A model generated the notes under the pieces. The model did not search any database and was not told where the DNA came from. It worked only from the letters and a program-made list of their open reading frames with translations. Shown here piece by piece: positions 7,849 to 61,456 of a DNA stretch of 64,000 nt. How positions within the stretch are numbered: the first letter of the stretch is position 1; every line of letters begins with the position of its first letter. The stretch lies in assembly GCF_003790525.1 (NCBI RefSeq), contig NZ_CP033635.1, one strand, 5' to 3'. The position numbers and the translations under genes were made by a program. The DNA is from Escherichia coli (GTDB lineage: Bacteria > Pseudomonadota > Gammaproteobacteria > Enterobacterales > Enterobacteriaceae).

Positions 7849-8013
7849 TTAAATTCTGATGAGAAAACAAACCAGCAGAAATATCTCTGGCGAATTAATC
7901 GCTATATAAATATGTTTATAACCATTTGAAATGTGAGCAAAAGCCCGTTTTTGCCACGCTTCCCGCCACTCTTTTGATCCTGCTACAGGTTTTACCCCGA
8001 TCGGGGTATGCAT
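7849..8013 (-). CDS. yojO: Small protein of unknown function (54 codons), divergent from napF
   Basis: Hand-translated minus-strand ORF MHTPIGVKPVAGSKEWREAWQKRAFAHISNGYKHIYIAINSPEIFLLVCFLIRI-stop. Length and position agree with my recollection of the K-12 small gene yojO next to eco, but this is not verified. Below the 60-aa cutoff of the ORF track. Confidence 0.4.
   Translation of the reverse strand: MHTPIGVKPVAGSKEWREAWQKRAFAHISNGYKHIYIAINSPEIFLLVCFLIRI
7897..7921 (+). promoter_or_regulatory. Candidate ModE operator in the napF control region
   Basis: atCGCTATATAaatatgtTTATAAcc resembles the ModE consensus (CGCTATATA-N-TATATAACG); the napF promoter is known to be molybdate/ModE-responsive. 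Confidence 0.4.
7974..8008 (+). promoter_or_regulatory. napF promoter: candidate FNR half-site (TTGAT) and a perfect NarP/NarL 7-2-7 palindrome TACCCCGATCGGGGTA
   Basis: Perfect 16-bp palindrome at about 7993..8008 matching the NarL/NarP heptamer pair (TACYYMT-2-AKRRGTA), about 115 bp upstream of the napF start; TTGAT about 15 bp further upstream. Confidence 0.6.
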
Positions 8014-50710: not shown

Positions 50711-50950
50711 AGTGTTCCTGTTCTGTGCATCCCGTCACAAATTCCCCGTTTTTATAATTCAGGCATTTAATCGCGTTTTGTGAGCCTGCTCAAATCTGCC
50801 CATTTTGCCTCTCTGGCGGTAATTTACTTTACGTAAAACATGCATACTATGAGCACATGTTTAAATATGAACACATGTTTAAACCGTCTTTGCAGTATCA
50901 ATATTCTTGTGGATTGACAGGGTTGGTAATTTTTTACCAGAGGACGTGCT

Positions 50951-51892
50951 ATGCGCGAAAAGGATTATGTCGTAATTATAGGTTCGGCGAATATTGATGT
51001 CGCCGGATATTCACATGAATCATTAAATTATGCGGATTCAAATCCAGGTAAAATAAAATTTACGCCTGGTGGGGTAGGGCGCAATATTGCACAAAACCTG
51101 GCGTTGCTGGGTAATAAAGCCTGGCTACTGAGCGCCGTAGGCAGTGATTTTTATGGCCAATCGCTGCTAACGCAAACCAATCAATCTGGCGTTTATGTCG
51201 ATAAATGCCTGATTGTGCCGGGAGAAAATACGTCGAGCTATTTATCATTACTCGATAATACCGGTGAAATGCTGGTTGCTATAAATGACATGAATATTAG
51301 CAACGCTATTACAGCTGAATATCTCGCACAGCACCGTGAATTTATTCAGAGGGCAAAGGTCATTGTCGCGGACTGTAATATCAGTGAAGAGGCACTGGCA
51401 TGGATTCTGGATAATGCCGCCAACGTACCCGTATTTGTCGATCCGGTTTCAGCGTGGAAATGTGTCAAAGTGCGCGACCGTCTAAATCAAATCCACACTC
51501 TCAAGCCAAACCGCCTTGAAGCGGAAACCCTGAGTGGGATTGCGCTGTCAGGGCGTGAAGATGTGGCAAAGGTTGCCGCCTGGTTCCATCAACATGGCCT
51601 GAACCGACTGGTATTGAGCATGGGCGGCGACGGCGTTTATTACAGTGATATCAGCGGTGAAAGTGGTTGGTCTGCGCCGATCAAAACCAATGTCATTAAT
51701 GTTACCGGAGCGGGCGATGCCATGATGGCGGGACTTGCTTCGTGTTGGGTAGACGGAATGCCGTTTGCCGAATCTGTTCGTTTCGCACAGGGATGTTCGT
51801 CAATGGCGCTCTCCTGTGAATACACCAATAACCCCGATTTATCGATTGCCAACGTTATATCGTTAGTGGAGAACGTAGAATGTCTGAATTAA
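50951..51892 (+). CDS. psuK: Pseudouridine kinase (PfkB family)
   Basis: 313-aa ORF; PfkB signatures PGGVGRNIAQNLALLG and GAGDAMMAG. Confidence 0.9.
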   Translation: MREKDYVVIIGSANIDVAGYSHESLNYADSNPGKIKFTPGGVGRNIAQNLALLGNKAWLLSAVGSDFYGQSLLTQTNQSGVYVDKCLIVPGENTSSYLSLLDNTGEMLVAINDMNISNAITAEYLAQHREFIQRAKVIVADCNISEEALAWILDNAANVPVFVDPVSAWKCVKVRDRLNQIHTLKPNRLEAETLSGIALSGREDVAKVAAWFHQHGLNRLVLSMGGDGVYYSDISGESGWSAPIKTNVINVTGAGDAMMAGLASCWVDGMPFAESVRFAQGCSSMALSCEYTNNPDLSIANVISLVENVECLN

Positions 51893-52818
51893 AAATTTCC
51901 CCTGAATTATTACAAATCTCCCCGGAAGTGCAGGACGCTTTAAAAAACAAAAAACCGGTTGTGGCGCTGGAATCGACTATTATTTCTCACGGGATGCCGT
52001 TCCCACAAAATGCCCAGACCGCAATTGAAGTTGAAGAAACTATTCGTAAACAGGGCGCTGTACCTGCCACTATCGCCATTATTGGCGGCGTGATGAAAGT
52101 GGGTTTAAGCAAAGAAGAAATTGAATTGCTGGGTCGCGAAGGGCATAACGTGACCAAAGTTAGTCGTCGCGATTTACCTTTTGTCGTTGCCGCCGGAAAA
52201 AATGGCGCAACCACTGTGGCTTCAACGATGATTATTGCGGCGCTTGCCGGAATTAAAGTATTTGCCACCGGGGGAATTGGTGGTGTGCATCGCGGGGCGG
52301 AACATACCTTCGATATTTCTGCCGATTTGCAAGAACTGGCAAATACTAATGTCACCGTTGTTTGTGCCGGTGCAAAATCTATTCTCGATTTAGGATTAAC
52401 AACAGAATATTTAGAAACCTTCGGTGTGCCGTTAATTGGCTATCAGACAAAAGCGCTGCCTGCGTTTTTCTGCCGTACCAGCCCATTTGAAGTTAGTATT
52501 CGCCTTGATAGTGCCACGGAAATCGCTCGTGCAATGGCGGTGAAATGGCAAAGCGGTCTGAACGGTGGCCTGGTGGTGGCAAATCCGATCCCGGAACAGT
52601 TTGCGATGCCGGAGGAATCTATCAATGCAGCCATAGATCAAGCCGTCGCCGAAGCCGAAGAGCAGGGCGTTATTGGTAAAGAAAGCACACCGTTCCTGCT
52701 GGCTCGTGTTGCTGAACTGACTGGCGGTGACAGCCTGAAATCCAACATCCAACTGGTGTTCAACAACGCCATTCTGGCGAGCGAAATTGCCAAAGAATAC
52801 CAGCGTCTCGCGGGTTAA
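51880..52818 (+). CDS. psuG: Pseudouridine-5'-phosphate glycosidase
   Basis: 312-aa ORF overlapping the psuK end. Confidence 0.9.
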   Translation: MSELKISPELLQISPEVQDALKNKKPVVALESTIISHGMPFPQNAQTAIEVEETIRKQGAVPATIAIIGGVMKVGLSKEEIELLGREGHNVTKVSRRDLPFVVAAGKNGATTVASTMIIAALAGIKVFATGGIGGVHRGAEHTFDISADLQELANTNVTVVCAGAKSILDLGLTTEYLETFGVPLIGYQTKALPAFFCRTSPFEVSIRLDSATEIARAMAVKWQSGLNGGLVVANPIPEQFAMPEESINAAIDQAVAEAEEQGVIGKESTPFLLARVAELTGGDSLKSNIQLVFNNAILASEIAKEYQRLAG

Positions 52819-52911
52819 TTTCTGACGGGCAGAAAGCCGTCGCCCGTACTGATCATACATACCAAAACCTGGCGCTGACGCCGGGTTTACTGGCATGAAG
52901 GGAAAATCATT

Positions 52912-54162
52912 ATGGATATAATGAGAAGTGTTGTGGGGATGGTGGTGTTACTGGCAATAGCATTTTTGTTGTCAGTGAATAAAAAGAGCATCAGTTTGCG
53001 CACGGTTGGAGCCGCGTTGCTGCTACAAATCGCCATTGGCGGAATCATGCTCTATTTTCCACCAGGAAAATGGGCGGTAGAACAGGCGGCATTAGGCGTT
53101 CATAAAGTGATGTCTTACAGTGATGCCGGTAGCGCCTTCATTTTTGGTTCGCTGGTTGGGCCGAAAATGGATGTCCTCTTTGACGGTGCGGGTTTTATCT
53201 TCGCCTTTCGCGTACTCCCGGCGATTATCTTCGTCACTGCGCTCATTAGTCTGCTGTACTACATTGGCGTGATGGGGCTGCTGATTCGCATCCTTGGCAG
53301 CATTTTCCAGAAAGCCCTCAACATCAGCAAAATCGAATCTTTTGTTGCGGTTACCACTATTTTCCTCGGGCAAAATGAGATCCCGGCGATCGTTAAACCG
53401 TTTATCGATCGCATGAATCGCAACGAGTTGTTTACCGCAATTTGTAGCGGGATGGCGTCCATTGCGGGTTCGATGATGATTGGTTATGCCGGAATGGGCG
53501 TACCAATTGACTACCTGTTAGCGGCATCGCTGATGGCGATCCCTGGCGGGATTTTGTTTGCACGTATTCTTAGCCCGGCAACCGAGCCTTCGCAGGTCAC
53601 ATTTGAAAATTTATCGTTCAGCGAAACGCCGCCAAAAAGCTTTATCGAAGCGGCGGCGAGCGGTGCGATGACCGGGCTGAAAATCGCCGCTGGTGTGGCG
53701 ACGGTGGTAATGGTATTTGTGGCAATTATTGCGCTGATCAACGGCATTATCGGCGGAATTGGCGGCTGGTTTGGCTTCGCCAATGCTTCTCTGGAAAGTA
53801 TTTTTGGCTATGTGCTGGCACCGCTGGCGTGGATCATGGGTGTGGACTGGAGTGATGCCAACCTTGCGGGTAGCCTGATTGGGCAGAAACTGGCAATTAA
53901 CGAATTCGTCGCTTACCTGAGTTTCTCCCCATACCTGCAAACGGGCGGCACGCTGGAAGTGAAAACCATTGCGATTATCTCCTTTGCGCTTTGTGGTTTT
54001 GCTAACTTTGGTTCTATCGGTGTTGTCGTTGGGGCATTTTCGGCTATTTCGCCAAAACGCGCACCGGAAATCGCTCAGCTTGGTTTACGGGCGCTGGCAG
54101 CAGCAACGCTTTCCAACCTGATGAGCGCGACCATTGCCGGGTTCTTTATTGGTTTAGCTTGA
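52912..54162 (+). CDS. psuT: NupC-family nucleoside permease (putative pseudouridine transporter)
   Basis: 416-aa polytopic ORF; near-identical paralog of the ORF at 56099..57349. Confidence 0.9.
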   Translation: MDIMRSVVGMVVLLAIAFLLSVNKKSISLRTVGAALLLQIAIGGIMLYFPPGKWAVEQAALGVHKVMSYSDAGSAFIFGSLVGPKMDVLFDGAGFIFAFRVLPAIIFVTALISLLYYIGVMGLLIRILGSIFQKALNISKIESFVAVTTIFLGQNEIPAIVKPFIDRMNRNELFTAICSGMASIAGSMMIGYAGMGVPIDYLLAASLMAIPGGILFARILSPATEPSQVTFENLSFSETPPKSFIEAAASGAMTGLKIAAGVATVVMVFVAIIALINGIIGGIGGWFGFANASLESIFGYVLAPLAWIMGVDWSDANLAGSLIGQKLAINEFVAYLSFSPYLQTGGTLEVKTIAIISFALCGFANFGSIGVVVGAFSAISPKRAPEIAQLGLRALAAATLSNLMSATIAGFFIGLA

Positions 54163-54229: not shown

Positions 54230-54889
54230 TTACTGCATCATCCCGGAGAATTTATTCTCCGGGTCCATCTCCAGCGCCAGTCCTGACAACTGCTTTCTGT
54301 TTTTAATTAGATATCCTTTCTTGCTTTTAATTAATAAACCGTCGTGAATGAATTGCGCGAGAACATATAAAAGATGTCGATAAGAAACGCCTAAATACTC
54401 TGCCGCTTGCGTATGCTTTTCGTGATAAAGATCACCTTCTTGTGAGAGTAATATAAATGCTGCCAGGCGATTCACTAACGGAAATGATTGATTCTGAGTT
54501 AAAGAAACAATATTGCGATAATTTTTATGGCTTAAACTAACGCAGAGTTTTCGTAAAAATAGCGTGTCGTTTAATAACAGCGGACGGTAATGTTTCATGG
54601 GGAGTGCAAGGCACCAACACTCTTCAATCGCCTGCACCGCACGTGGTTCATGGTCTTTATCGATTAACTCAATCTCACCAATAAAACAGGGGGCGGCAAA
54701 GAAATCGATCAGCGACACGCGACCATTAGCAAGCGTGGCGTAAAGCCTGGCGCGGCCTCGCGTCAGGTAAAACAGCCATGACGGCTGTTGCCCTTCCTGC
54801 ACAATGTAGTCACGTGCTAAAAAATGAAACAGCCGTGCATCGGCTGAAACATCCGTTGAAAAGCAATCCTTAAACGCGGATTCACTCAT
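54230..54889 (-). CDS. yeiL: Crp/Fnr-family transcriptional regulator YeiL
   Basis: ORF 54230..54928; cNMP-binding-like domain plus C-terminal HTH; start trimmed to MSESAFKD (219 aa), uncertain. Confidence 0.88.
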
Positions 54890-55057
54890 CAATTGCTGCT
54901 TAAGATCATTATTGTGGATTTCTTTCACGATATTTATCCGCTATGAGATTTCTCATATTTAGCATACGTACGCTGTTGTTAAGATTCAATCATCGGCCCG
55001 GTCGAATTTTCTTTGCTGTAGAAAAAATAACGCAACTGGAAACAGAGGAAATAAACA

Positions 55058-55999
55058 ATGGAAAAGAGAAAAATTATTCTGGATTGTGATCCGGGTCATG
55101 ATGATGCTATTGCAATGATGATGGCAGCGAAACATCCGGCGATTGATTTATTAGGTATCACCATTGTAGCGGGTAATCAGACGCTTGATAAAACATTAAT
55201 TAATGGCCTGAATGTTTGCCAGAAACTGGAGATTAATGTTCCGGTTTATGCGGGGATGCCACAACCCATTATGCGGCAACAAATCGTTGCCGATAATATT
55301 CACGGTGAAACCGGACTGGATGGCCCGGTATTCGAGCCGCTGACCCGCCAGGCAGAAAGCACTCATGCGGTGAAATATATCATCGATACCCTGATGGCAA
55401 GCGATGGCGATATCACTCTGGTGCCGGTTGGTCCGCTTTCAAATATCGCGGTGGCAATGCGTATGCAGCCCGCGATCCTGCCAAAAATCCGTGAAATTGT
55501 ACTGATGGGCGGCGCTTATGGTACTGGCAACTTCACGCCATCTGCCGAGTTCAACATCTTTGCGGACCCGGAAGCGGCGCGAGTGGTGTTCACCTCCGGC
55601 GTTCCATTAGTGATGATGGGCCTCGATCTCACCAACCAGACCGTTTGCACCCCGGACGTGATTGCTAGGATGGAAAGGGCAGGCGGCCCCGCCGGAGAGC
55701 TGTTCAGCGACATCATGAACTTCACTCTGAAAACGCAGTTCGAAAACTACGGTCTGGCTGGCGGCCCGGTACATGACGCCACCTGTATCGGTTATCTGAT
55801 TAACCCCGATGGCATTAAAACCCAGGAGATGTACGTCGAAGTGGATGTTAACAGTGGCCCTTGCTATGGGCGTACCGTCTGCGACGAGCTGGGCGTTCTT
55901 GGCAAGCCCGCCAATACCAAAGTCGGCATCACTATTGATACCGACTGGTTCTGGGGATTAGTCGAAGAGTGCGTGCGCGGCTACATCAAAACCCATTAA
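55058..55999 (+). CDS. rihB: Pyrimidine-specific ribonucleoside hydrolase RihB
   Basis: 313-aa ORF; nucleoside-hydrolase N-terminal Asp cluster DCDPGHDDA. Confidence 0.92.
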
Positions 56000-56098
56000 G
56001 TGTTGATAACAAGCCGGGACAGTATCGCAAGATGCAGGCCCGGCGATTTCTGATGGGCAGAAAGCCGTCGCCCAAAATGACATGAAGAGATAATAACT

Positions 56099-57349
56099 AT
56101 GGATGTCATGAGAAGTGTTCTGGGAATGGTGGTATTGCTGGCAATTGCATTTTTGCTGTCAGTAAACAAGAAGAGGATCAGCCTGCGTACCGTTGGCGCG
56201 GCGTTAGTGTTACAGGTCGTGATTGGCGGCATTATGCTTTGGTTACCGCCAGGGCGTTGGGTCGCTGAAAAAGTCGCTTTTGGCGTCCATAAAGTGATGG
56301 CGTACAGCGACGCGGGTAGCGCATTTATCTTCGGTTCGCTGGTCGGGCCGAAAATGGACACGCTGTTTGATGGTGCAGGATTTATCTTTGGTTTCAGAGT
56401 ATTACCGGCAATTATCTTCGTCACCGCGCTGGTGAGTATTCTCTACTACATCGGTGTGATGGGGATCTTAATTCGCATTCTCGGCGGTATCTTCCAGAAA
56501 GCATTAAATATCAGCAAGATCGAGTCATTCGTCGCGGTCACTACCATTTTCCTCGGGCAAAACGAAATTCCGGCAATCGTCAAACCCTTTATCGATCGGC
56601 TGAATCGCAATGAATTATTTACAGCGATTTGTAGTGGCATGGCCTCGATTGCTGGTTCGACAATGATTGGTTACGCCGCACTGGGCGTACCTGTGGAATA
56701 TTTGCTGGCGGCATCGTTAATGGCGATCCCAGGCGGGATCTTGTTTGCCCGCCTGTTAAGCCCGGCTACGGAATCTTCGCAGGTTTCTTTTAATAACCTC
56801 TCTTTCACCGAAACACCGCCAAAAAGTATTATTGAGGCCGCTGCGACAGGGGCAATGACCGGGCTGAAAATCGCTGCGGGTGTGGCAACAGTGGTGATGG
56901 CATTTGTTGCCATCATTGCGTTAATTAACGGTATTATCGGCGGCGTTGGCGGCTGGTTTGGTTTTGAGCAAGCCTCGCTGGAGTCCATTTTAGGTTATCT
57001 GCTGGCCCCGCTGGCGTGGGTGATGGGGGTTGACTGGAGTGATGCAAATCTTGCCGGGAGTTTGATTGGGCAGAAGTTGGCGATCAATGAATTTGTCGCT
57101 TACCTCAATTTCTCACCTTATCTGCAAACAGCTGGCACGCTCGATGCTAAAACCGTGGCGATTATTTCCTTCGCGTTGTGCGGTTTCGCTAACTTTGGTT
57201 CTATCGGGGTAGTGGTTGGGGCATTTTCTGCGGTTGCGCCACACCGCGCGCCGGAAATCGCCCAGCTTGGTTTACGCGCGCTGGCGGCGGCGACACTTTC
57301 TAACCTGATGAGTGCCACCATTGCAGGATTCTTTATTGGCTTAGCGTAG
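56099..57349 (+). CDS. nupX: NupC-family nucleoside permease NupX
   Basis: 416-aa polytopic ORF, paralog of psuT. Confidence 0.92.
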   Translation: MDVMRSVLGMVVLLAIAFLLSVNKKRISLRTVGAALVLQVVIGGIMLWLPPGRWVAEKVAFGVHKVMAYSDAGSAFIFGSLVGPKMDTLFDGAGFIFGFRVLPAIIFVTALVSILYYIGVMGILIRILGGIFQKALNISKIESFVAVTTIFLGQNEIPAIVKPFIDRLNRNELFTAICSGMASIAGSTMIGYAALGVPVEYLLAASLMAIPGGILFARLLSPATESSQVSFNNLSFTETPPKSIIEAAATGAMTGLKIAAGVATVVMAFVAIIALINGIIGGVGGWFGFEQASLESILGYLLAPLAWVMGVDWSDANLAGSLIGQKLAINEFVAYLNFSPYLQTAGTLDAKTVAIISFALCGFANFGSIGVVVGAFSAVAPHRAPEIAQLGLRALAAATLSNLMSATIAGFFIGLA

Positions 57350-57404
57350 TGCGCGAGTTATGAGCCGGATAAGACGCGGTCAAGCGTCGAATCCGGCAAG
57401 ATTG

Positions 57405-58493
57405 TTACACCATCGGCACTAATGAAAGCGCGTTATCGGCAGACAGGGTAGGGTTGTTTAAGCTGCCGCTGGCGCGTGAAATTGCCGCGCAGGCCATCGC
57501 AAAACGGGCGCTGTCACGGAAACTGCTTCCTTCCAGAAAGCTATACACCAGGCCCGCCATAAAACCATCGTCAGCACCAAAACTGTCTACCGTCGTATGC
57601 GCTGGCGCAGTCAGCAAAAATTGTTCGCCATCCTTTTGGCTGCAATAAACAGACTCATCGGGCAAATAAACAAACAGTTGCTGAACGCCTTGCTGATGCA
57701 ACGCATTCACTGCGGCATTACGATCAGCATCGCGGGTTATCGGCTGGCCCCATAAAATTTCCAGCTCCGACAAAGTGGGTTTCAGAGTGTGAATATGCGC
57801 CAGCCAGTGTTTGATTTTGCCCGCTTTGAATTCTGAAACGGTATCGACAAACACCGGGATTTCATCAGCGAGGGTAAAGACCCATTCCAGCGCCTCGGCT
57901 GTCAGGTTACAATCTGCCAGTACCACGCCCGCATGACGAAGTAAATCGCGCGACCCGTTCAGTAGTTGCGGTGTCAACTGATCCAGCAGATGGGTATCGT
58001 TAATCGCCAGCACGGTTTGATCGTCTCGATTGGCAATTGCCAGATACGTCGATGTGCTTTGACCATGTAAACGAACGCAGCCGGAGACATTCACGCCGGC
58101 GCGGCGCGTTTCTTCCAGGAGCATTTCGCCATAAAAGTCATCGCCAATCACTGAAAGCAAATGAACGTCGCGGCCTAACAGCGCCAGATTGTGGGCGATA
58201 TTGCGTCCAACGCCGCCTGCCGAGCAATGAATGGTACCGGGATGAGAAGCCGCTTGCGGGTAACGGATATCCGCCATCCCGCGAATATCCATATTGATTG
58301 TCCCCACCACTACGCAGTATTCCTGCTCGGTGAGAATGTAACCTTTGCCTTTAATCCGTCCTTTGCGCATTAAATCCATAATATGCGCTGCAACACGCGA
58401 ACGGCTGATTTGCAGCATATCCGCAATTTCGTTCTGCTGAATCAGCGGGTTACGCCTTAATATTGCAAGGATCTCCTTCTCCCGGTTATTCAT
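57405..58493 (-). CDS. yeiI: Uncharacterised fusion protein: N-terminal winged-helix HTH + PfkB-family kinase
   Basis: 362-aa ORF; N-terminal HTH (EILAILRRNPLIQQNEIADMLQISRSRVAAHI) then PfkB kinase domain (AGGVGRNIAHNLALLG, GADDGFMAG) paralogous to PsuK. Confidence 0.88.
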   Translation of the reverse strand: MNNREKEILAILRRNPLIQQNEIADMLQISRSRVAAHIMDLMRKGRIKGKGYILTEQEYCVVVGTINMDIRGMADIRYPQAASHPGTIHCSAGGVGRNIAHNLALLGRDVHLLSVIGDDFYGEMLLEETRRAGVNVSGCVRLHGQSTSTYLAIANRDDQTVLAINDTHLLDQLTPQLLNGSRDLLRHAGVVLADCNLTAEALEWVFTLADEIPVFVDTVSEFKAGKIKHWLAHIHTLKPTLSELEILWGQPITRDADRNAAVNALHQQGVQQLFVYLPDESVYCSQKDGEQFLLTAPAHTTVDSFGADDGFMAGLVYSFLEGSSFRDSARFAMACAAISRASGSLNNPTLSADNALSLVPMV

Positions 58494-58495
58494 CT

Positions 58496-59353
58496 TCAGG
58501 CTACCGCTTTTTCAGTTTGTTGCGCTTTCAGCCAGGCGATCTCTTCTGCCCAGATATCCGGGTTGATGGTTTCAAGGATCAGCGGAATGCCGTCGAAACG
58601 GTCGTCCTGCATGATCCAGCGGAACGCATCATGACCGATATTGCCTTCACCGAGGCTATGATGGCGGTCAACGCGGCTGCCAAAGGTGCTTTTCGCATCG
58701 TTAAGGTGCATCCCGCGCAGATACTTAAAGCCGACAATACGGGCAAAATCCGCGAACGTTTTCTCGCATTCGGCAGAAGTACGCAAATCATACCCGGCAG
58801 CGAAAGCATGGCAGGTATCAATGCAGACGCCGACGCGGGATTTATCTTCCACGCCGTCGATAATCGCCGCGAGATGTTCGAATTTAAACCCTAAGTTACT
58901 GCCCTGACCGGCGGTGTTTTCAATCACCGCTGTCACACCATGAGTTTTATCCAGCGCAATGTTGATGGATTCGGCAATACGCGCAAGGCAATCCTCTTCT
59001 GAAATCTGCATCAGATGGCTGCCAGGGTGGAAGTTGAGCAAAGAAAGCCCCAGCTGTTCGCAACGCTGCATTTCATCTATAAAGGCATCGCGCGATTTTT
59101 CCAGAGCTTCAGTGACCGGATGTCCGAGGTTAATCAGATAACTGTCGTGGGGAAGAATTTGCGCCGATGTGTAGTGATATTTTTCACAGGCGGCTTTGAA
59201 TTCATCGATGGTTTGCGTCGTGAGCGGTGCGGCACGCCACTGACGTTGGTTTTTGGTGAACAAGGCAAACGCGGTTGCGTCGATTTCGGCGGCGCGAATT
59301 GCGGCATTTGCCAGACCGCCAGCAGCACTAACGTGCGCTCCAATGTATTTCAT
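58496..59353 (-). CDS. nfo: Endonuclease IV (AP endonuclease)
   Basis: 285-aa ORF recognised as E. coli Nfo. Confidence 0.95.
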
Positions 59354-59426
59354 GCGAGGACTCCTGTTAAACCCGCTGGAGGAAAACGGTAATGATAGCG
59401 GGTTAACAGGAGCAAGATGTAGTGGT

Positions 59427-60476
59427 TTATGCGATGACGCTTTGAATCACATAGTTAATCGCACCACCACCAACAATCAGCCAGGCAAACAGTACCAGAG
59501 CCATCAGCAGAGGTTTCGCCCCGGCTTTTTTCAGCGCGCTGACGTGAGTGGTCAGACCCAGCGCCGCCATCGCCATTGCCAGCAGGAAGGTATCCAGCGT
59601 TACCAGCATATTCACTACGCTCTGCGGTAACAGGTGGAACGAGTTAAAGATGGCAACTACGATGAACAAGATGGCAAACCACGGAATAGTGATTTTGCTT
59701 TTCTCGCCGCTGTTCGCCCCAGACAGCTGTTTAACACGCGCCGCCAGCAGGATGAGGAACGGAGCCAGCATCATCACGCGCAGCATTTTGGAAATAACTG
59801 CTGCGTTTTCTGCATCCGGGCTGATGGCATGACCTGCCGCCACCACCTGCGCCACTTCGTGCACAGTAGAACCAATGTAGATACCGAAAGTTTCCGGACT
59901 AAACCATTGAGACATCAGCGGATATATCGCCGGGTAGAGGAAAATCGCGACGGTCCCGAAGATAACAACGGTTGCAACAGCCACGGTTACTTTACTGGCT
60001 TCTGCTTTCACTACCGGCTCAGTCGCCAGTACCGCGGCAGCACCACAGATACTGCTACCGGCACCGATCAACCAGCTCGTGTGCTTATCCAGACCAAACA
60101 CTTTCTGCCCCAGGAAGCAAGCCAGCAGGAAGGTACTGGACAGCGTCAACACGTCAATGATGATCCCACTGATACCGACATCGGCAATTTGCGAGAACGT
60201 CAGACGGAAGCCATAAAGAATGATACCCAGACGTAATAAATATTGCTTGGCAAACAGCACGCCACCGTCACAGCTTTTCCAGATGTGCGGATAGATGGTG
60301 TTGCCTAAAACCATCCCCAACAAAATTGCGAGGGTGAGGGCACTAAACCCGGCACCCGCAACCGCGGGAATGGAACCACCCCACAGGGCGACCCCGGTGA
60401 TAACTGCACTCAGGGCTAACCCCGGAATAAAATGCCACAGTGTACGATGTTGTTTCTGTAAGGTGATATTCGTCAT
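59427..60476 (-). CDS. yeiH: Inner-membrane protein YeiH (UPF0324 family)
   Basis: 349-aa polytopic ORF, divergent from yeiE. Confidence 0.9.
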
Positions 60477-60574
60477 AACCCTCTCCTTTAACCGGGCATA
60501 AGGTTACGACTAACTGGTTTAAAAATAAAATTGATTATATATTTATAATTAATCTTTATAAGTGGTAAGCGACT

Positions 60575-61456
60575 ATGCACATCACCCTCCGGCAGTTGGA
60601 AGTTTTTGCAGAAGTATTGAAAAGTGGATCAACCACCCAGGCGTCGGTGATGCTGGCGTTGTCGCAATCAGCAGTGAGCGCAGCCTTGACCGACCTGGAA
60701 GGGCAGCTTGGCGTGCAACTGTTTGATCGCGTGGGGAAAAGACTGGTTGTTAATGAACACGGGCGGCTGCTCTATCCGCGCGCGTTGGCACTGCTTGAAC
60801 AGGCGGTTGAAATCGAACAACTGTTTCGCGAAGACAACGGCGCGATTCGTATCTATGCCAGTAGTACCATCGGTAACTACATTCTGCCTGCAGTTATCGC
60901 CCGTTATCGCCATGATTATCCGCAGTTGCCGATTGAACTTAGCGTTGGGAATAGCCAGGACGTGATGCAAGCGGTGCTGGATTTCCGCGTTGATATTGGC
61001 TTTATTGAAGGACCGTGCCACAGCACTGAAATCATTTCTGAACCGTGGCTGGAAGACGAGCTGGTGGTTTTCGCCGCGCCGACTTCGCCGTTGGCTCGTG
61101 GTCCGGTCACCTTAGAACAGCTGGCCGCTGCGCCGTGGATCCTGCGTGAACGCGGTTCCGGCACGCGGGAGATTGTCGATTATCTGTTGCTGTCACATTT
61201 ACCGAAGTTTGAGATGGCGATGGAATTAGGTAACTCCGAGGCAATCAAACATGCGGTGCGTCATGGGTTGGGTATTAGTTGCCTGTCGCGACGGGTGATT
61301 GAAGATCAATTGCAGGCAGGCACATTAAGTGAAGTTGCGGTCCCTCTTCCGCGCCTGATGCGTACGTTGTGGCGTATACATCATCGGCAAAAACACCTTT
61401 CCAACGCGCTACGGCGCTTCCTGGACTATTGCGATCCCGCGAATGTACCGCGTTAA
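60575..61456 (+). CDS. yeiE: LysR-type transcriptional regulator YeiE
   Basis: 293-aa ORF with N-terminal LysR HTH. Confidence 0.92.

Follow-up and report, generated by a model that had tools for sequence, protein, structure and literature searches.

YeiI of Escherichia coli is proposed to be a pseudouridine-sensing one-component regulator, probably a repressor, of the psuKGT genes, which would have arisen from a duplicated kinase-regulator; on the basis of sequence comparison a probability of about 0.5 is assigned to this reading. The likely ligand is pseudouridine (or pseudouridine 5'-phosphate), and the psuK promoter is probably the sole target. Both yeiI and the predicted regulated operon psuK-psuG-psuT (50951..54162, plus strand; defined from the open reading frames and the annotation of the orthologous region) lie in the window, by which is meant the whole 64-kb stretch of DNA that was analysed. 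The products of the operon are a pseudouridine kinase, a pseudouridine-5'-phosphate glycosidase and a nucleoside transporter. A one-component regulator controlled by the ligand of its own kinase domain had already been suggested in a first-pass annotation of this DNA, and the suggestion fits the comparative evidence from synteny, pocket residues, operators and conservation of the helix-turn-helix (HTH) domain. Databases and papers already contain the gene, describe its domain architecture and class its product as a predicted transcription factor; yeiI is among the remaining uncharacterised genes of E. coli K-12, appears in lists of predicted transcription factors without a known target, and its product is termed uncharacterised in the literature (PMC12506659).

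The yeiI coding sequence (57405..58493, minus strand) comprises 362 codons and a stop codon, as deduced from the open reading frame list, NCBIfam and the annotation. Since the yeiI coding sequence reaches only to 58493, the interval 57405-58498 given earlier corresponds to yeiI together with the stop codon of nfo. The protein belongs to the NCBIfam equivalog NF007416 'sugar kinase' (811 bits), and the same name is used in the annotation of E. coli SMS-3-5 (NC_010498.1; 100% identity to the window), where yeiI is listed with nfo and nupX. The N-terminal residues 1-48 (58350..58493, minus strand) constitute a winged-helix DNA-binding domain (Pfam HTH_24, E 2.3e-10, with weaker matches to HTH_11 and MarR_2), and residues 58-348 (57450..58322, minus strand) constitute a PfkB (ribokinase-like) domain (Pfam PF00294, E 8.3e-68), the match extending over model positions 2-298 of 302, i.e. 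over the full length. The AlphaFold2 model (pLDDT 89.1, pTM 0.82) contains helices at residues 3-14, 20-27 and 31-43 and a beta-hairpin wing at 46-53, and a linker at about residues 45-58, predicted at lower confidence, leads to the kinase fold. Superposition of the kinase part on the E. coli pseudouridine kinase 7vtd with Foldseek gave a TM-score of 0.95, an rmsd of 1.7 A and 38% identity, and the PfkB domain matched the PDB sequence 7vkp with an E value of 1.6e-66; the closest structural relative of this domain is the pseudouridine kinase PsuK/PUKI. The claimed fusion of an HTH domain with a complete PfkB domain is borne out by Pfam, by the model and by the superposition on 7vtd. The structure prediction that had been recommended as a check likewise showed the two-domain architecture, with an N-terminus predicted as a winged helix.

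The HTH domain is the most conserved part of YeiI. Almost no variation is seen across the family in the recognition helix (approximately residues 31-43) or in the wing KGxIKGKGY, and 17 invariant columns were found in the first 52 residues of the family alignment. The identity between YeiI and HTH-PsuK proteins is 63-74% in the HTH domain and 41-52% in the kinase part. The dN/dS ratio of the gene is 0.10, indicative of purifying selection, with values of 0.04 for the HTH domain and 0.11 for the kinase part.

The ligand pocket was examined by means of a residue table comparing 14 YeiI-clade sequences with 31 PsuK/HTH-PsuK sequences in EcPUKI numbering. The residues that contact pseudouridine in EcPUKI, namely N14, D16, S30, Y97, N112, N143 and K170, are all kept in the 14 YeiI sequences. 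The hydrophilic triad S30/N143/K170, which contacts the pseudouridine base, is the hallmark of the EcPUKI family (PMC9061257), and its equivalents in YeiI, S83, N196 and K223, are present in 14 out of 14 sequences. The ribose-binding N67 and D69 are conserved as well, and the glycine-rich signature of YeiI is AGGVGRN (residues 92-98); the family alignment shows no variation at G93, G94 and N98. The catalytic D256 (YeiI D309) and K185 (YeiI K238), a residue of EcPUKI whose importance has been described (PMC9061257), are also retained.

The phosphoryl-transfer motifs showed a different picture. The substitutions M114T, N250D and G255D occur in every YeiI sequence, and N187 is replaced in all of them (by T in 13 and by A in one); none of M114T, N187T, N250D and G255D was found in the 31 PsuK/HTH-PsuK sequences, which all have N187 and among which the single deviation at N250 is an N250S in Gilliamella. 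M114T alters the nucleobase pocket of YeiI. The C-terminal GAGD motif, which provides the anion hole and the catalytic Asp, has become GADD (G306-A307-D308-D309; 57567..57578, minus strand), the Gly before the catalytic Asp being replaced by Asp, in all 14 YeiI sequences, while the other group has GAGD (28 sequences), GSGD (2) or GCGD (1). The PROSITE PfkB signature tolerates an Asp at this position. The NXXE motif expected of the PfkB family, which serves in Mg2+/phosphate binding, is represented in YeiI by TLSE, a TXXE variant (T240-L-S-E243; 57765..57776, minus strand) seen in the residue table, K238 being kept nearby. Kinase activity in YeiI is still conceivable, since both K238 and the catalytic base D309 have been kept. 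It scored 255.5 bits against the PsuK equivalog NF007355, for which the cut-off is 540. A psuK mutant has been reported to be unable to use pseudouridine (PMC12506659), and therefore YeiI would seem to be without adequate kinase activity in vivo. In our reading the kinase activity of YeiI would have been lost or reduced.

The genomic neighbourhood was compared in 27 loci from Enterobacteriaceae and 53 loci from other lineages. In 41 of the latter the HTH-PfkB gene is directly upstream of psuG, often with psuT too, and the remaining 12, without psuG linkage, are all from Xenorhabdus. No lead came from a second Xenorhabdus paralog, next to which lie unrelated genes for a CobD-like protein, a GHMP-like kinase and regulators of the TetR and AraC types. 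The HTH-PfkB gene of a Firmicute example is likewise paired with psuG. In Enterobacteriaceae yeiI is located between nfo and the psu genes in 27/27 loci; psuK is present in 26 of these, and one locus (L005) is devoid of both psuK and psuT. In a neighbour-joining tree of the kinase domains the HTH-less PsuK is nested within the HTH-PsuK clade, which implies that the HTH domain was lost, and YeiI forms a sister group on a long branch; as the tree was built by a simple distance method, a long-branch effect might account for where YeiI is placed.

YeiI and PsuK/PUKI (E. coli YeiC; 7vkp, 7vtd, 7vva) share the PfkB fold, all pseudouridine contacts and the catalytic Asp, and they are encoded a few kb apart. 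YeiI differs in its extra N-terminal winged helix, in a kinase-domain identity of 38%, in carrying M114T, N187T, N250D and G255D, in scoring below the PsuK equivalog cut-off and in that it does not replace PsuK in vivo, judging from the phenotype of the psuK mutant (PMC12506659). The HTH-PsuK fusions, found in Yersinia, Serratia, Hafnia, Photorhabdus, Morganella, Gilliamella, Pasteurellaceae, Shewanella, Chromobacteriaceae and Firmicutes, have the same two-domain architecture as YeiI, a near-identical recognition helix and wing, and a paired operator of the same type near the psu genes. Their NXXE and GAGD motifs are canonical, whereas both are altered in YeiI, and their genes stand first in an operon with psuG, whereas yeiI is apart from psuG and follows nfo; with such motifs and such a position the fusions are presumably active kinases. 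These uncharacterised proteins are annotated variously as 'PfkB family carbohydrate kinase', 'pseudouridine kinase' or 'winged helix-turn-helix transcriptional regulator'.

A candidate binding site for the YeiI winged helix was found at psuK. Conservation predicts a psuK promoter at 50823..50850 (plus strand), with a -35 element TTTACT (50823-50828), a 16-nt spacer and a -10 element TACTAT (50845-50850). These elements are conserved in 14/14 psuK upstream regions of Enterobacteriaceae (E. coli and 13 further loci), and TTTACT also occurs upstream of HTH-psuK in Yersinia, Serratia, Hafnia, Photorhabdus, Xenorhabdus and Morganella. Directly downstream of the -10 element, two palindromes of the AAAC-N4-GTTT type, GAGCACATGTTT (50851-50862) and GAACACATGTTT (50869-50880), are 18 bp apart and make up the operator pair predicted for YeiI from a pair-spacing scan and conservation (50851..50880, plus strand). 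Pairs with a spacing of 18-19 bp precede psuK or HTH-psuK in Gamma- and Betaproteobacteria, including the HTH-less psuK in all 14 enterobacterial regions examined. The AAAC-N4-GTTT pair was absent from the upstream region of a Firmicute HTH-PfkB gene, and therefore the claim of operator conservation is limited to Gamma- and Betaproteobacteria.

Apart from the psuK pair, the intergenic DNA of the fruA-lysP region contains no pair of this type, and the exact 13-mer of the psuK operator has no other occurrence within the 64-kb window. The pair-spacing scan of intergenic DNA near nfo, yeiI, yeiH, nupX, rihB and psuT revealed no operator-like pair; a few such pairs, at chance level, are contained in the coding sequences of yeiL, yeiE and psuK. 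The only HTH of this family in E. coli is that of YeiI, to which the operator pair of the psuK promoter is assigned as a prediction. Of the regions upstream of nupX, rihB and psuK that had been put forward as possible targets, that of psuK stands, with its candidate operator pair, and those of nupX and rihB, which have no pair upstream, do not. A search of the window with CAAACNNNNGTTTG, allowing 2 mismatches, returned fewer matches than expected by chance and missed the psuK sites, since in E. coli their half-sites read GAGC/GAAC; this search was superseded by the 13-mer search and the pair-spacing scan.

A recurrent adaptive single-nucleotide change in the psuK promoter, 2257444 A>C, has been described both in mouse-gut evolution and in long-term stationary-phase evolution. 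We take this change to be at position 50825 of the window, where it would convert the -35 element TTTACT into TTGACT (NC_000913.2 coordinates). The mapping was made with the K-12 sequence and is self-consistent with the gene lengths and the required base. With the adaptive change in the predicted -35 element, the operators would be at about +1 to +30. During gut evolution the repressors frlR, srlR, dgoR and glpR repeatedly lost their function, and at the psu locus of the introduced K-12 strain the recurrent change was the same single promoter SNP. In the main texts and the supplementary files examined on gut evolution (including PMC9509342) yeiI is not mentioned. Adaptation without yeiI mutation is unexpected if a YeiI knockout derepressed psuK to the same benefit.

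Two other roles of YeiI have to be weighed against pseudouridine-dependent repression. It is unlikely, in our judgement, that YeiI chiefly works as a nucleoside or sugar kinase on a substrate other than that of PsuK, such as a modified pseudouridine or another C-nucleoside, with an HTH domain that is autoregulatory or vestigial. The complete PfkB domain, the retention of D309, K238, N67 and D69, the nucleobase pocket altered by M114T and the name 'sugar kinase' given by NCBI all agree with such a kinase, as does the strict conservation of the four substitutions under purifying selection (dN/dS 0.10); however, the NXXE and GAGD motifs are altered, the pseudouridine-specific S/N/K triad is unchanged, and a vestigial HTH domain would hardly show the strongest conservation within the protein. 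Autoregulation, for its part, would call for an operator-like pair near yeiI or nfo, where there is none, whereas an orphan pair persists at psuK, whose product is devoid of an HTH domain. Quite improbable, to a greater degree than the kinase, is a YeiI that acts at the psuK operators as a pseudouridine-dependent activator instead of a repressor. A -35 element that is weak and conserved as TTTACT would suit an activator, and so would adaptation through an up-mutation of this element and not through loss of yeiI; moreover, an alternative K-12 promoter, TTTAAA-16-TATATT, would put site 2 over a -35 element. This alternative promoter is nevertheless conserved neither in other genera nor in the present window, and the sites of the HTH-psuK species lie between a -10-like element and the start codon, a position typical of repressors.

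If YeiI is the pseudouridine-responsive repressor, its winged helix, probably as a dimer, would bind the two palindromes overlapping the psuK +1 region and keep psuK-psuG-psuT repressed until the ligand is present. In the published PsuK structures pseudouridine closes the beta-clasp dimer (PMC9061257), and by analogy the same closure in YeiI would shift the two N-terminal HTH domains and release the DNA. The ancestor was probably the widespread bifunctional HTH-PsuK, at the same time kinase and autoregulator of HTH-psuK-psuG-psuT, which would have been duplicated in Enterobacteriaceae. One duplicate, now the enzyme PsuK, would have dropped the HTH domain while its gene remained under the original promoter and operator; the second, YeiI, would have kept the HTH domain and the ligand pocket and gained substitutions in the phosphoryl-transfer motifs. 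On this view a trigger enzyme was divided in two and YeiI took over its regulatory part, as a PfkB-fold sensor with impaired catalysis that would repress psuKGT from a distance, in trans, by way of the operator pair left by the ancestor. We advance this interpretation tentatively and with rather less than even confidence.

Regulators derived from or fused to enzymes include the ROK-family proteins NagC and Mlc, with sugar-kinase-like sensors, BirA (HTH and biotin ligase), NadR (HTH, NMN adenylyltransferase and ribosylnicotinamide kinase) and the archaeal RbkR (HTH and riboflavin kinase). Like these trigger enzymes, YeiI joins a DNA-binding domain to an enzyme fold, its predicted ligand comes from the regulated pathway, and its predicted target genes are nearby. 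Unlike them, it has a sensor of PfkB/ribokinase-like fold, and one can trace how an enzyme copy, PsuK, and a regulator copy, YeiI, apparently parted. A search of the accessible literature revealed no characterised regulator with a PfkB/ribokinase-like sensor fold.

On the 5' side, yeiI is preceded by nfo (endonuclease IV / deoxyribonuclease IV; 58496..59353, minus strand; NCBIfam NF002199, 556 bits, and annotation). The junction TGA-AG-ATG (58491..58498, minus strand) reads ...GCC TGA AG ATG AAT..., with the nfo TGA at 58498-58496 and the yeiI ATG at 58493-58491; the claim that yeiI starts about 2 nt past the nfo stop on the same strand proved accurate, the gap being exactly 2 nt, which leaves no room for a terminator. 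The junction of K-12 is identical to that of the window, and an alternative E. coli allele, TGATCGATG, has a 3-nt gap. In 26/27 loci of Enterobacteriaceae the gap is 0-3 nt, and this conservation makes co-transcription of nfo and yeiI likely. The sequence upstream of the yeiI start, AAAAAGCGGTAGCCTGAAG, has no good Shine-Dalgarno match, and RNA folding at the junction gave no stable structure and no sequestration of the start codon (z +0.88). Read-through from nfo probably supplies YeiI in small amounts, through termination-reinitiation, which would amount to translational coupling of the two genes. In the translationally coupled pairs trpE-trpD and trpB-trpA the stop codon of one gene overlaps or nearly touches the start codon of the next. 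The nfo-yeiI pair resembles such pairs in being on the same strand with its stop and start codons 2 nt apart, in the weak Shine-Dalgarno sequence and in the tight junction kept across genera. It differs from them in the functionally unrelated products and in that the distal gene, yeiI, has been replaced by recombination independently of nfo; the coupling is here deduced from sequence, as opposed to the trp pairs.

The same junction could be read in two other ways. It is possible, though somewhat doubtful, that yeiI has its own promoter in the 3' part of nfo and that the 2-nt gap reflects gene packing without coupling. In genomic SELEX, performed in vitro, a peak of RpoD holoenzyme was observed at the nfo>yeiI boundary, and nfo and yeiI were taken as single-gene units, which would agree with a promoter of yeiI within nfo; a weak promoter-like match, CTGCCA-16-TATGAT, is found inside nfo at 58814..58787. 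The SELEX table, however, assigns no promoter sequence to this peak, and the weak match comes from consensus scans of 57200-60700 in which neither promoter nor terminator matches were commoner than in shuffled sequence. Synonymous-codon entropy along nfo in 22 Enterobacteriaceae showed no local drop and no clear conserved footprint of an embedded promoter, and the weak Shine-Dalgarno sequence and the gap of 0-3 nt across genera also speak against an independent unit. A promoter inside nfo would be compatible with the main functional explanation of YeiI. A functional pairing, in which YeiI aids or regulates repair or couples nucleoside salvage to SoxS stress, appears very improbable. It could appeal to the tight junction conserved across Enterobacteriaceae and to the regulation of nfo by SoxS, by which a co-transcribed yeiI would be co-induced. 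Yet nfo was within 8 kb of the HTH-PfkB gene in none of the 53 loci outside Enterobacteriaceae, and there are no operator-like sites near nfo. Moreover, within E. coli yeiI is exchanged as a separate recombination unit (dS 0.99, compared with 0.043 for nfo) with a breakpoint at the nfo/yeiI junction, as seen in divergence profiles computed against one locus only (L001), the K-12 locus L002 being left out.

The link to AP-endonuclease, which had been regarded as unexplained, loses much of its weight when 41 of the same 53 loci adjoin psuG. Since it is confined to Enterobacteriaceae, the link would be a matter of position or expression and not of shared function; the nfo-yeiI pair appears to have little functional meaning, and would be an expression arrangement rather than a partnership with DNA repair. 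As an added and less likely layer, the SoxS-controlled nfo transcript might tie the level of the YeiI repressor to oxidative stress.

The data herein presented provide a specific, testable prediction for yeiI, consisting of an operator (50851-50880), a target (psuKGT) and a ligand (pseudouridine). If the prediction is true, a function would be given to a long-standing y-gene, and YeiI would be the first characterised transcription regulator of PfkB fold and, for E. coli, the first sensor dedicated to a modified nucleoside, here pseudouridine. The psuK promoter, its operators and its regulator would help to explain adaptation in the mouse gut and in long-term stationary phase, and the regulation of psuK could be useful for the engineering of pseudouridine production strains, in which the psuKGT genes are manipulated. 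At the psu/yeiI locus it would also be possible to trace how a bifunctional enzyme-regulator was divided into a separate enzyme and sensor.

On the 3' side, yeiI converges on nupX (56099..57349, plus strand), in accordance with the first-pass annotation. The spacer between the two genes is 55 nt long in the window and 106 nt in K-12. RNA folding revealed in it a strong REP-like hairpin (57364..57397) with energies of -26.0 and -24.8 kcal/mol (z -5.15 and -3.63), which may form the end of the nupX and yeiI transcripts or stabilise them.

The window showed 100% identity to E. coli SMS-3-5 (NC_010498.1), in which the interval is annotated as yeiI, nfo, yeiH and nupX. The yeiI ORF (57405..58493, minus strand) encodes 362 amino acids and follows nfo (58496..59353, same strand), the endonuclease IV gene, the junction reading GCC TGA AG ATG AAT AAC on the minus strand, that is, with a gap of 2 nt; on its other side it converges on nupX (56099..57349, plus strand) across a spacer of 55 nt. 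Pfam searches identified an HTH_24 domain (residues 1-48, E 2.3e-10) and a PfkB domain that is essentially full-length (residues 58-348, E 8.3e-68). The AlphaFold2 model, based on an input alignment of 22 sequences, was confident (pLDDT 89.1, pTM 0.82) and contained, in order, three helices and a beta-hairpin wing, a softer linker and the kinase fold. The first-pass annotation, which had described a fusion of a winged-helix and a PfkB domain starting about 2 nt after the nfo stop and converging on nupX, and had named structure prediction as a check of the two domains, was right in every sequence-level detail.

The nearest fold to the kinase part was that of E. coli pseudouridine kinase 7vtd (TM 0.95, rmsd 1.7 A, 38% identity; Foldseek), and no solved structure carrying the HTH of YeiI was found by PDB sequence search and Foldseek. 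In NCBIfam the protein has its own equivalog, NF007416 'sugar kinase' (811 bits), and reaches 255 bits with the pseudouridine-kinase model, below the cut-off of 540. The convergent spacer between nupX and yeiI, whose length depends on the strain (55 nt in the window vs 106 nt in K-12), contains a strong REP-like hairpin at 57364-57397 (-26 kcal/mol, z -5.2 and -3.6).

Proteins with the HTH-PfkB architecture are widespread, being found in Enterobacterales, Pasteurellaceae, Shewanella, Aliivibrio, Chromobacteriaceae and Firmicutes. Gene neighbourhoods were surveyed at 80 genomic loci, searched with the proteins encoded in the window. The 27 loci from Enterobacteriaceae (Escherichia, Citrobacter, Enterobacter, Buttiauxella, Raoultella, Klebsiella spallanzanii, Leclercia, Kosakonia, Phytobacter, Entomohabitans and the Enterobacteriaceae MAG L022) showed the order lysP, yeiE, yeiH, nfo, yeiI and then, on the opposite strand, psuT, psuG and psuK, encoding a nucleoside transporter, pseudouridine-5'-phosphate glycosidase and pseudouridine kinase, with fruA usually next. 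As only some of these loci have the nupX-rihB-yeiL block of E. coli, yeiI converges directly on the pseudouridine operon in most genera. This block (54230-57349; yeiL, rihB, nupX) is missing from most of the Enterobacteriaceae loci, where yeiI faces psuT, and NupX and PsuT are 88% identical (367/416 aa), so that the block looks like an insertion including a psuT duplicate. One Escherichia locus (sp. MOD1-EC7003) keeps yeiI and has neither psuK nor psuT, and in Citrobacter koseri only partial matches to yeiI, nupX, psuG and psuK were found, which suggests a decaying locus.

Outside this set, the HTH-PfkB gene was located directly upstream of psuG on the same strand in 41 of 53 loci, often with a psuT/nupX-like transporter gene next (Morganella, Serratia, Yersinia, Hafnia, Photorhabdus, Gilliamella, Xenorhabdus, Chelonobacter, Aquitalea, Chromobacterium, Vogesella, Paludibacterium, Shewanella), and in a Ruminococcaceae example it is followed by a PF04227 (PsuG-family) gene. 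In the psuG-linked organisms the fusion protein, hereafter HTH-PsuK, is evidently the pseudouridine kinase of the operon. The remaining 12 loci all belong to Xenorhabdus, and the two species checked, X. lircayensis and X. beddingii, carry a psuG-linked copy in the same genome besides the orphan gene. The orphan proteins (L060, L062-L068, L070-L072) are about 45% identical to YeiI; the two tabulated have a canonical GAGD motif and a Y97 to C change, and the neighbours at one such locus, L065, are unrelated (a CobD-like protein, a GHMP-like kinase, TetR and AraC regulators).

The kinase domain of HTH-PsuK is 57-61% identical to E. coli PsuK in other Enterobacterales and Chelonobacter and 45% in Shewanella, and 41-52% identical to that of YeiI. 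In a neighbour-joining tree of this domain, a simple distance tree that leaves the precise branching point uncertain, the PsuK of Enterobacteriaceae, without HTH, falls inside the HTH-PsuK clade of other Enterobacterales and Pasteurellales, a position best explained by loss of the HTH in PsuK. YeiI forms a separate, long-branched clade, sister to the PsuK/HTH-PsuK group; on this tree YeiI and PsuK are paralogs, of which YeiI retained the HTH.

Directly upstream of HTH-psuK, and downstream of a conserved TTTACT element, two AAAC-N4-GTTT-type palindromes were found in Yersinia, Serratia, Hafnia, Photorhabdus, Morganella, Gilliamella, Chelonobacter, Aquitalea, Chromobacterium, Vogesella, Paludibacterium and Shewanella, with a spacing of 18 bp, or 19 bp in Betaproteobacteria and Shewanella. 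The same promoter and palindrome module precedes the HTH-less psuK in all 14 Enterobacteriaceae regions compared (E. coli and 13 loci), in the form TTTACT, about 16-17 nt, TAYTAT, RAACAYRTGTTY, six nt, RAACATGTGCTC. In the window the predicted -35 element TTTACT lies at 50823-50828, the predicted -10 element TACTAT at 50845-50850, predicted operator site 1 (GAGCACATGTTT) at 50851-50862 and site 2 (GAACACATGTTT) at 50869-50880, ahead of the psuK ATG at 50951. Within the 64 kb the 13-mer ACACATGTTTAAA has a single exact match, at site 2, and its sole one-mismatch neighbour is site 1; from fruA to lysP the psuK pair is the only intergenic pair of this spacing.

As E. coli PsuK lacks a DNA-binding domain, a protein acting in trans is needed for the inherited operator, and the sole HTH of the YeiI-type family in the neighbourhood is that of YeiI. 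This is the main argument for YeiI as a regulator of psuKGT, acting in trans on the predicted operator. The one-component regulator proposed in the first-pass annotation gains substantial comparative support and a specific form, with pseudouridine as the predicted ligand, psuKGT as the predicted target and a defined predicted operator; its suggested targets nupX and rihB did not gain support, as the pair-spacing scan from fruA to lysP revealed no operator-like pair near nupX, rihB, psuT, nfo or yeiI. For the same reason autoregulation of yeiI is unsupported. In Yersinia, Serratia and Hafnia (L029-L052, at about 7965-8003) the operator region ends 3-4 nt before the HTH-psuK start codon and contains no Shine-Dalgarno sequence, which implies a very short or unusual leader; some database entries prolong HTH-PsuK by MFKNKQVS(I/N), reading the operator as coding sequence.

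The residues of YeiI were compared in a 45-sequence alignment with those defined in the structures of E. coli PsuK (EcPUKI; PMC9061257). All the pseudouridine-contacting residues, N14, D16, S30, Y97, N112, N143 and K170 in EcPUKI numbering, are kept in YeiI as N67, D69, S83, Y150, N165, N196 and K223, including the S/N/K triad described as the family hallmark (PMC9061257), and so are the catalytic base D256 (D309) and K185 (K238). All 14 YeiI-clade sequences carry M114T, N250D and G255D, the last converting GAGD to GADD, and at N187 of the NXXE motif 13 have T and one has A. In the 31 PsuK and HTH-PsuK sequences position 114 is always M, 187 always N and 255 always G, and position 250 is N with one exception (S in Gilliamella). 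In PfkB kinases the NXXE motif contributes to Mg2+ and phosphate binding and the glycines preceding the catalytic Asp form the anion hole, and the changes in YeiI would therefore be expected to reduce phosphoryl transfer. Selection on the gene is purifying (dN/dS 0.10 for the whole gene, 0.04 for the HTH), which together with the fixed substitutions indicates that YeiI is functional rather than in decay. Conservation across the family is highest in the HTH, with 17 invariant columns within the first 52 residues and 63-74% identity between YeiI and the HTH-PsuK of Gamma- and Betaproteobacteria, against 41-52% in the kinase part.

It is tempting to speculate how such a protein could respond to its ligand. 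In EcPUKI, pseudouridine closes the beta-clasp dimer by way of Ser30 of the neighbouring subunit, a reference C-alpha distance falling from about 66 to about 51 A (PMC9061257). The HTH of YeiI and HTH-PsuK is joined a few residues ahead of the first strand of the kinase domain. Ligand-driven closure of this kind could plausibly shift the relative placement of the two HTH domains of a dimer and with it their fit to a 12-bp palindrome; the open, ligand-free protein is proposed to bind the predicted operator of psuKGT and to be released on binding of pseudouridine.

Independent information on the psuK promoter is provided by evolution experiments. The SNP 2257444 A>C in the psuK/fruA intergenic region recurs in E. 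coli K-12 colonising the mouse gut, and was placed by the authors in the psuK promoter region, with the remark that intergenic changes such as psuK/fruA can alter the expression of flanking genes, psuK being named (PMC7518454, PMC9509342); in long-term stationary-phase cultures, too, an A>C change arose repeatedly at the psuK promoter (PMC7858067). The substituted base appears to correspond to the third T of TTTACT (window 50825), which would become TTGACT, the base needed (plus-strand A) being present. With the psuK start in NC_000913.2, which we take to be 2257318, the SNP maps in the K-12 sequence 126 nt upstream of the psuK ATG; this start fits the lengths of both genes, psuK and fruA, as well as a constant offset from the K-12 record. 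The SNP thus appears to be a classic -35 up-mutation of psuK, a mapping that leans on the assumed coordinate, and its location in the predicted -35 element supports the promoter assignment. By this assignment the operators span about +1 to +30, a location typical of repressor sites.

Loss of yeiI would be an easy way to gain the benefit of this SNP if the protein acted as a simple, strong repressor. In the mouse-gut experiments the repressor genes frlR, srlR, dgoR and glpR were repeatedly inactivated, and yeiI is not mentioned in the main texts or supplementary files examined (PMC7518454, PMC9509342). Possibly the weak -35 element limits expression even when the operon is derepressed, or YeiI is poorly expressed in K-12; YeiI may also be an activator, or the assignment of YeiI as regulator may be wrong.

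In the searchable literature nothing was found on the targets or ligand of YeiI or on how psuKGT is regulated. Databases already contain the gene with its architecture, so the finding as first stated is not new. YeiI is described as an uncharacterised sugar kinase clustering with pseudouridine kinases (PMC9061257) and figures in a list of hypothetical E. coli transcription factors (PMC6055005). A machine-learning call of YeiI as pseudouridine kinase met with the objection that PsuK already supplies this activity and that a psuK mutant cannot use pseudouridine (PMC12506659). The functional prediction, which would place YeiI among enzyme-derived one-component regulators, is apparently new within this literature and directly testable.

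The stop-start distance between nfo and yeiI was 0-3 nt in 26 of the 27 Enterobacteriaceae loci, the exception being Entomohabitans with about 90 nt. The sequence upstream of yeiI (AAAAAGCGGTAGCCTGAAG) contains no good match to a Shine-Dalgarno sequence, the RNA around the start was predicted by folding to be unstructured, and no local conservation of synonymous sites indicating an embedded promoter was detected in nfo. The most economical reading of these features is that the two genes are co-transcribed and that ribosomes ending at the nfo stop reinitiate on yeiI, which would suit a low-abundance regulator. A separate yeiI promoter is possible, and genomic SELEX with RpoD holoenzyme gave in vitro peaks at both yeiH>nfo and nfo>yeiI, to which no promoter sequence was assigned, nfo and yeiI being handled as single-gene units (PMC3946193). 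The nfo promoter was not located, the sole promoter-like match near the nfo start (59370..59342) overlapping its ATG. The genes yeiH, nfo and yeiI are co-directional, with 73 nt between yeiH and nfo (59354-59426), and yeiE, of the LysR family, is divergent from yeiH (60477-60574).

Among the 80 loci the association with nfo is confined to Enterobacteriaceae, no nfo being found within 8 kb of the HTH-PfkB gene at the 53 others. Within E. coli, 2055 of the 5425 complete genomes with a match carry a version of the 2.2-kb interval of about 89% identity. As judged from a divergence profile against L001, a locus with this other allele, the divergence is confined to yeiI (68-85% identity over 57594-58493, against 6106-7194 in L001), nfo being 98-100% identical from the very first base past the yeiI start. 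Between the alleles dS is 0.99 for yeiI (dN/dS 0.10) and 0.043 for nfo, and the other allele is nearer to E. albertii yeiI (dS 0.33), with which it groups in the neighbour-joining tree, than to the K-12/SMS-3-5 allele. This pattern looks like replacement of the yeiI allele through recombination, the breakpoint lying at the boundary of nfo and yeiI. As nfo and yeiI do not share their history within E. coli, and their linkage is limited to Enterobacteriaceae, the pairing appears positional and the connection with nfo incidental. Both alleles have the tight junction, 2 nt and 3 nt, and keep all diagnostic residues; in some E. coli clusters YeiI is truncated, to 289 aa (P0032) or 260 aa (P0054).
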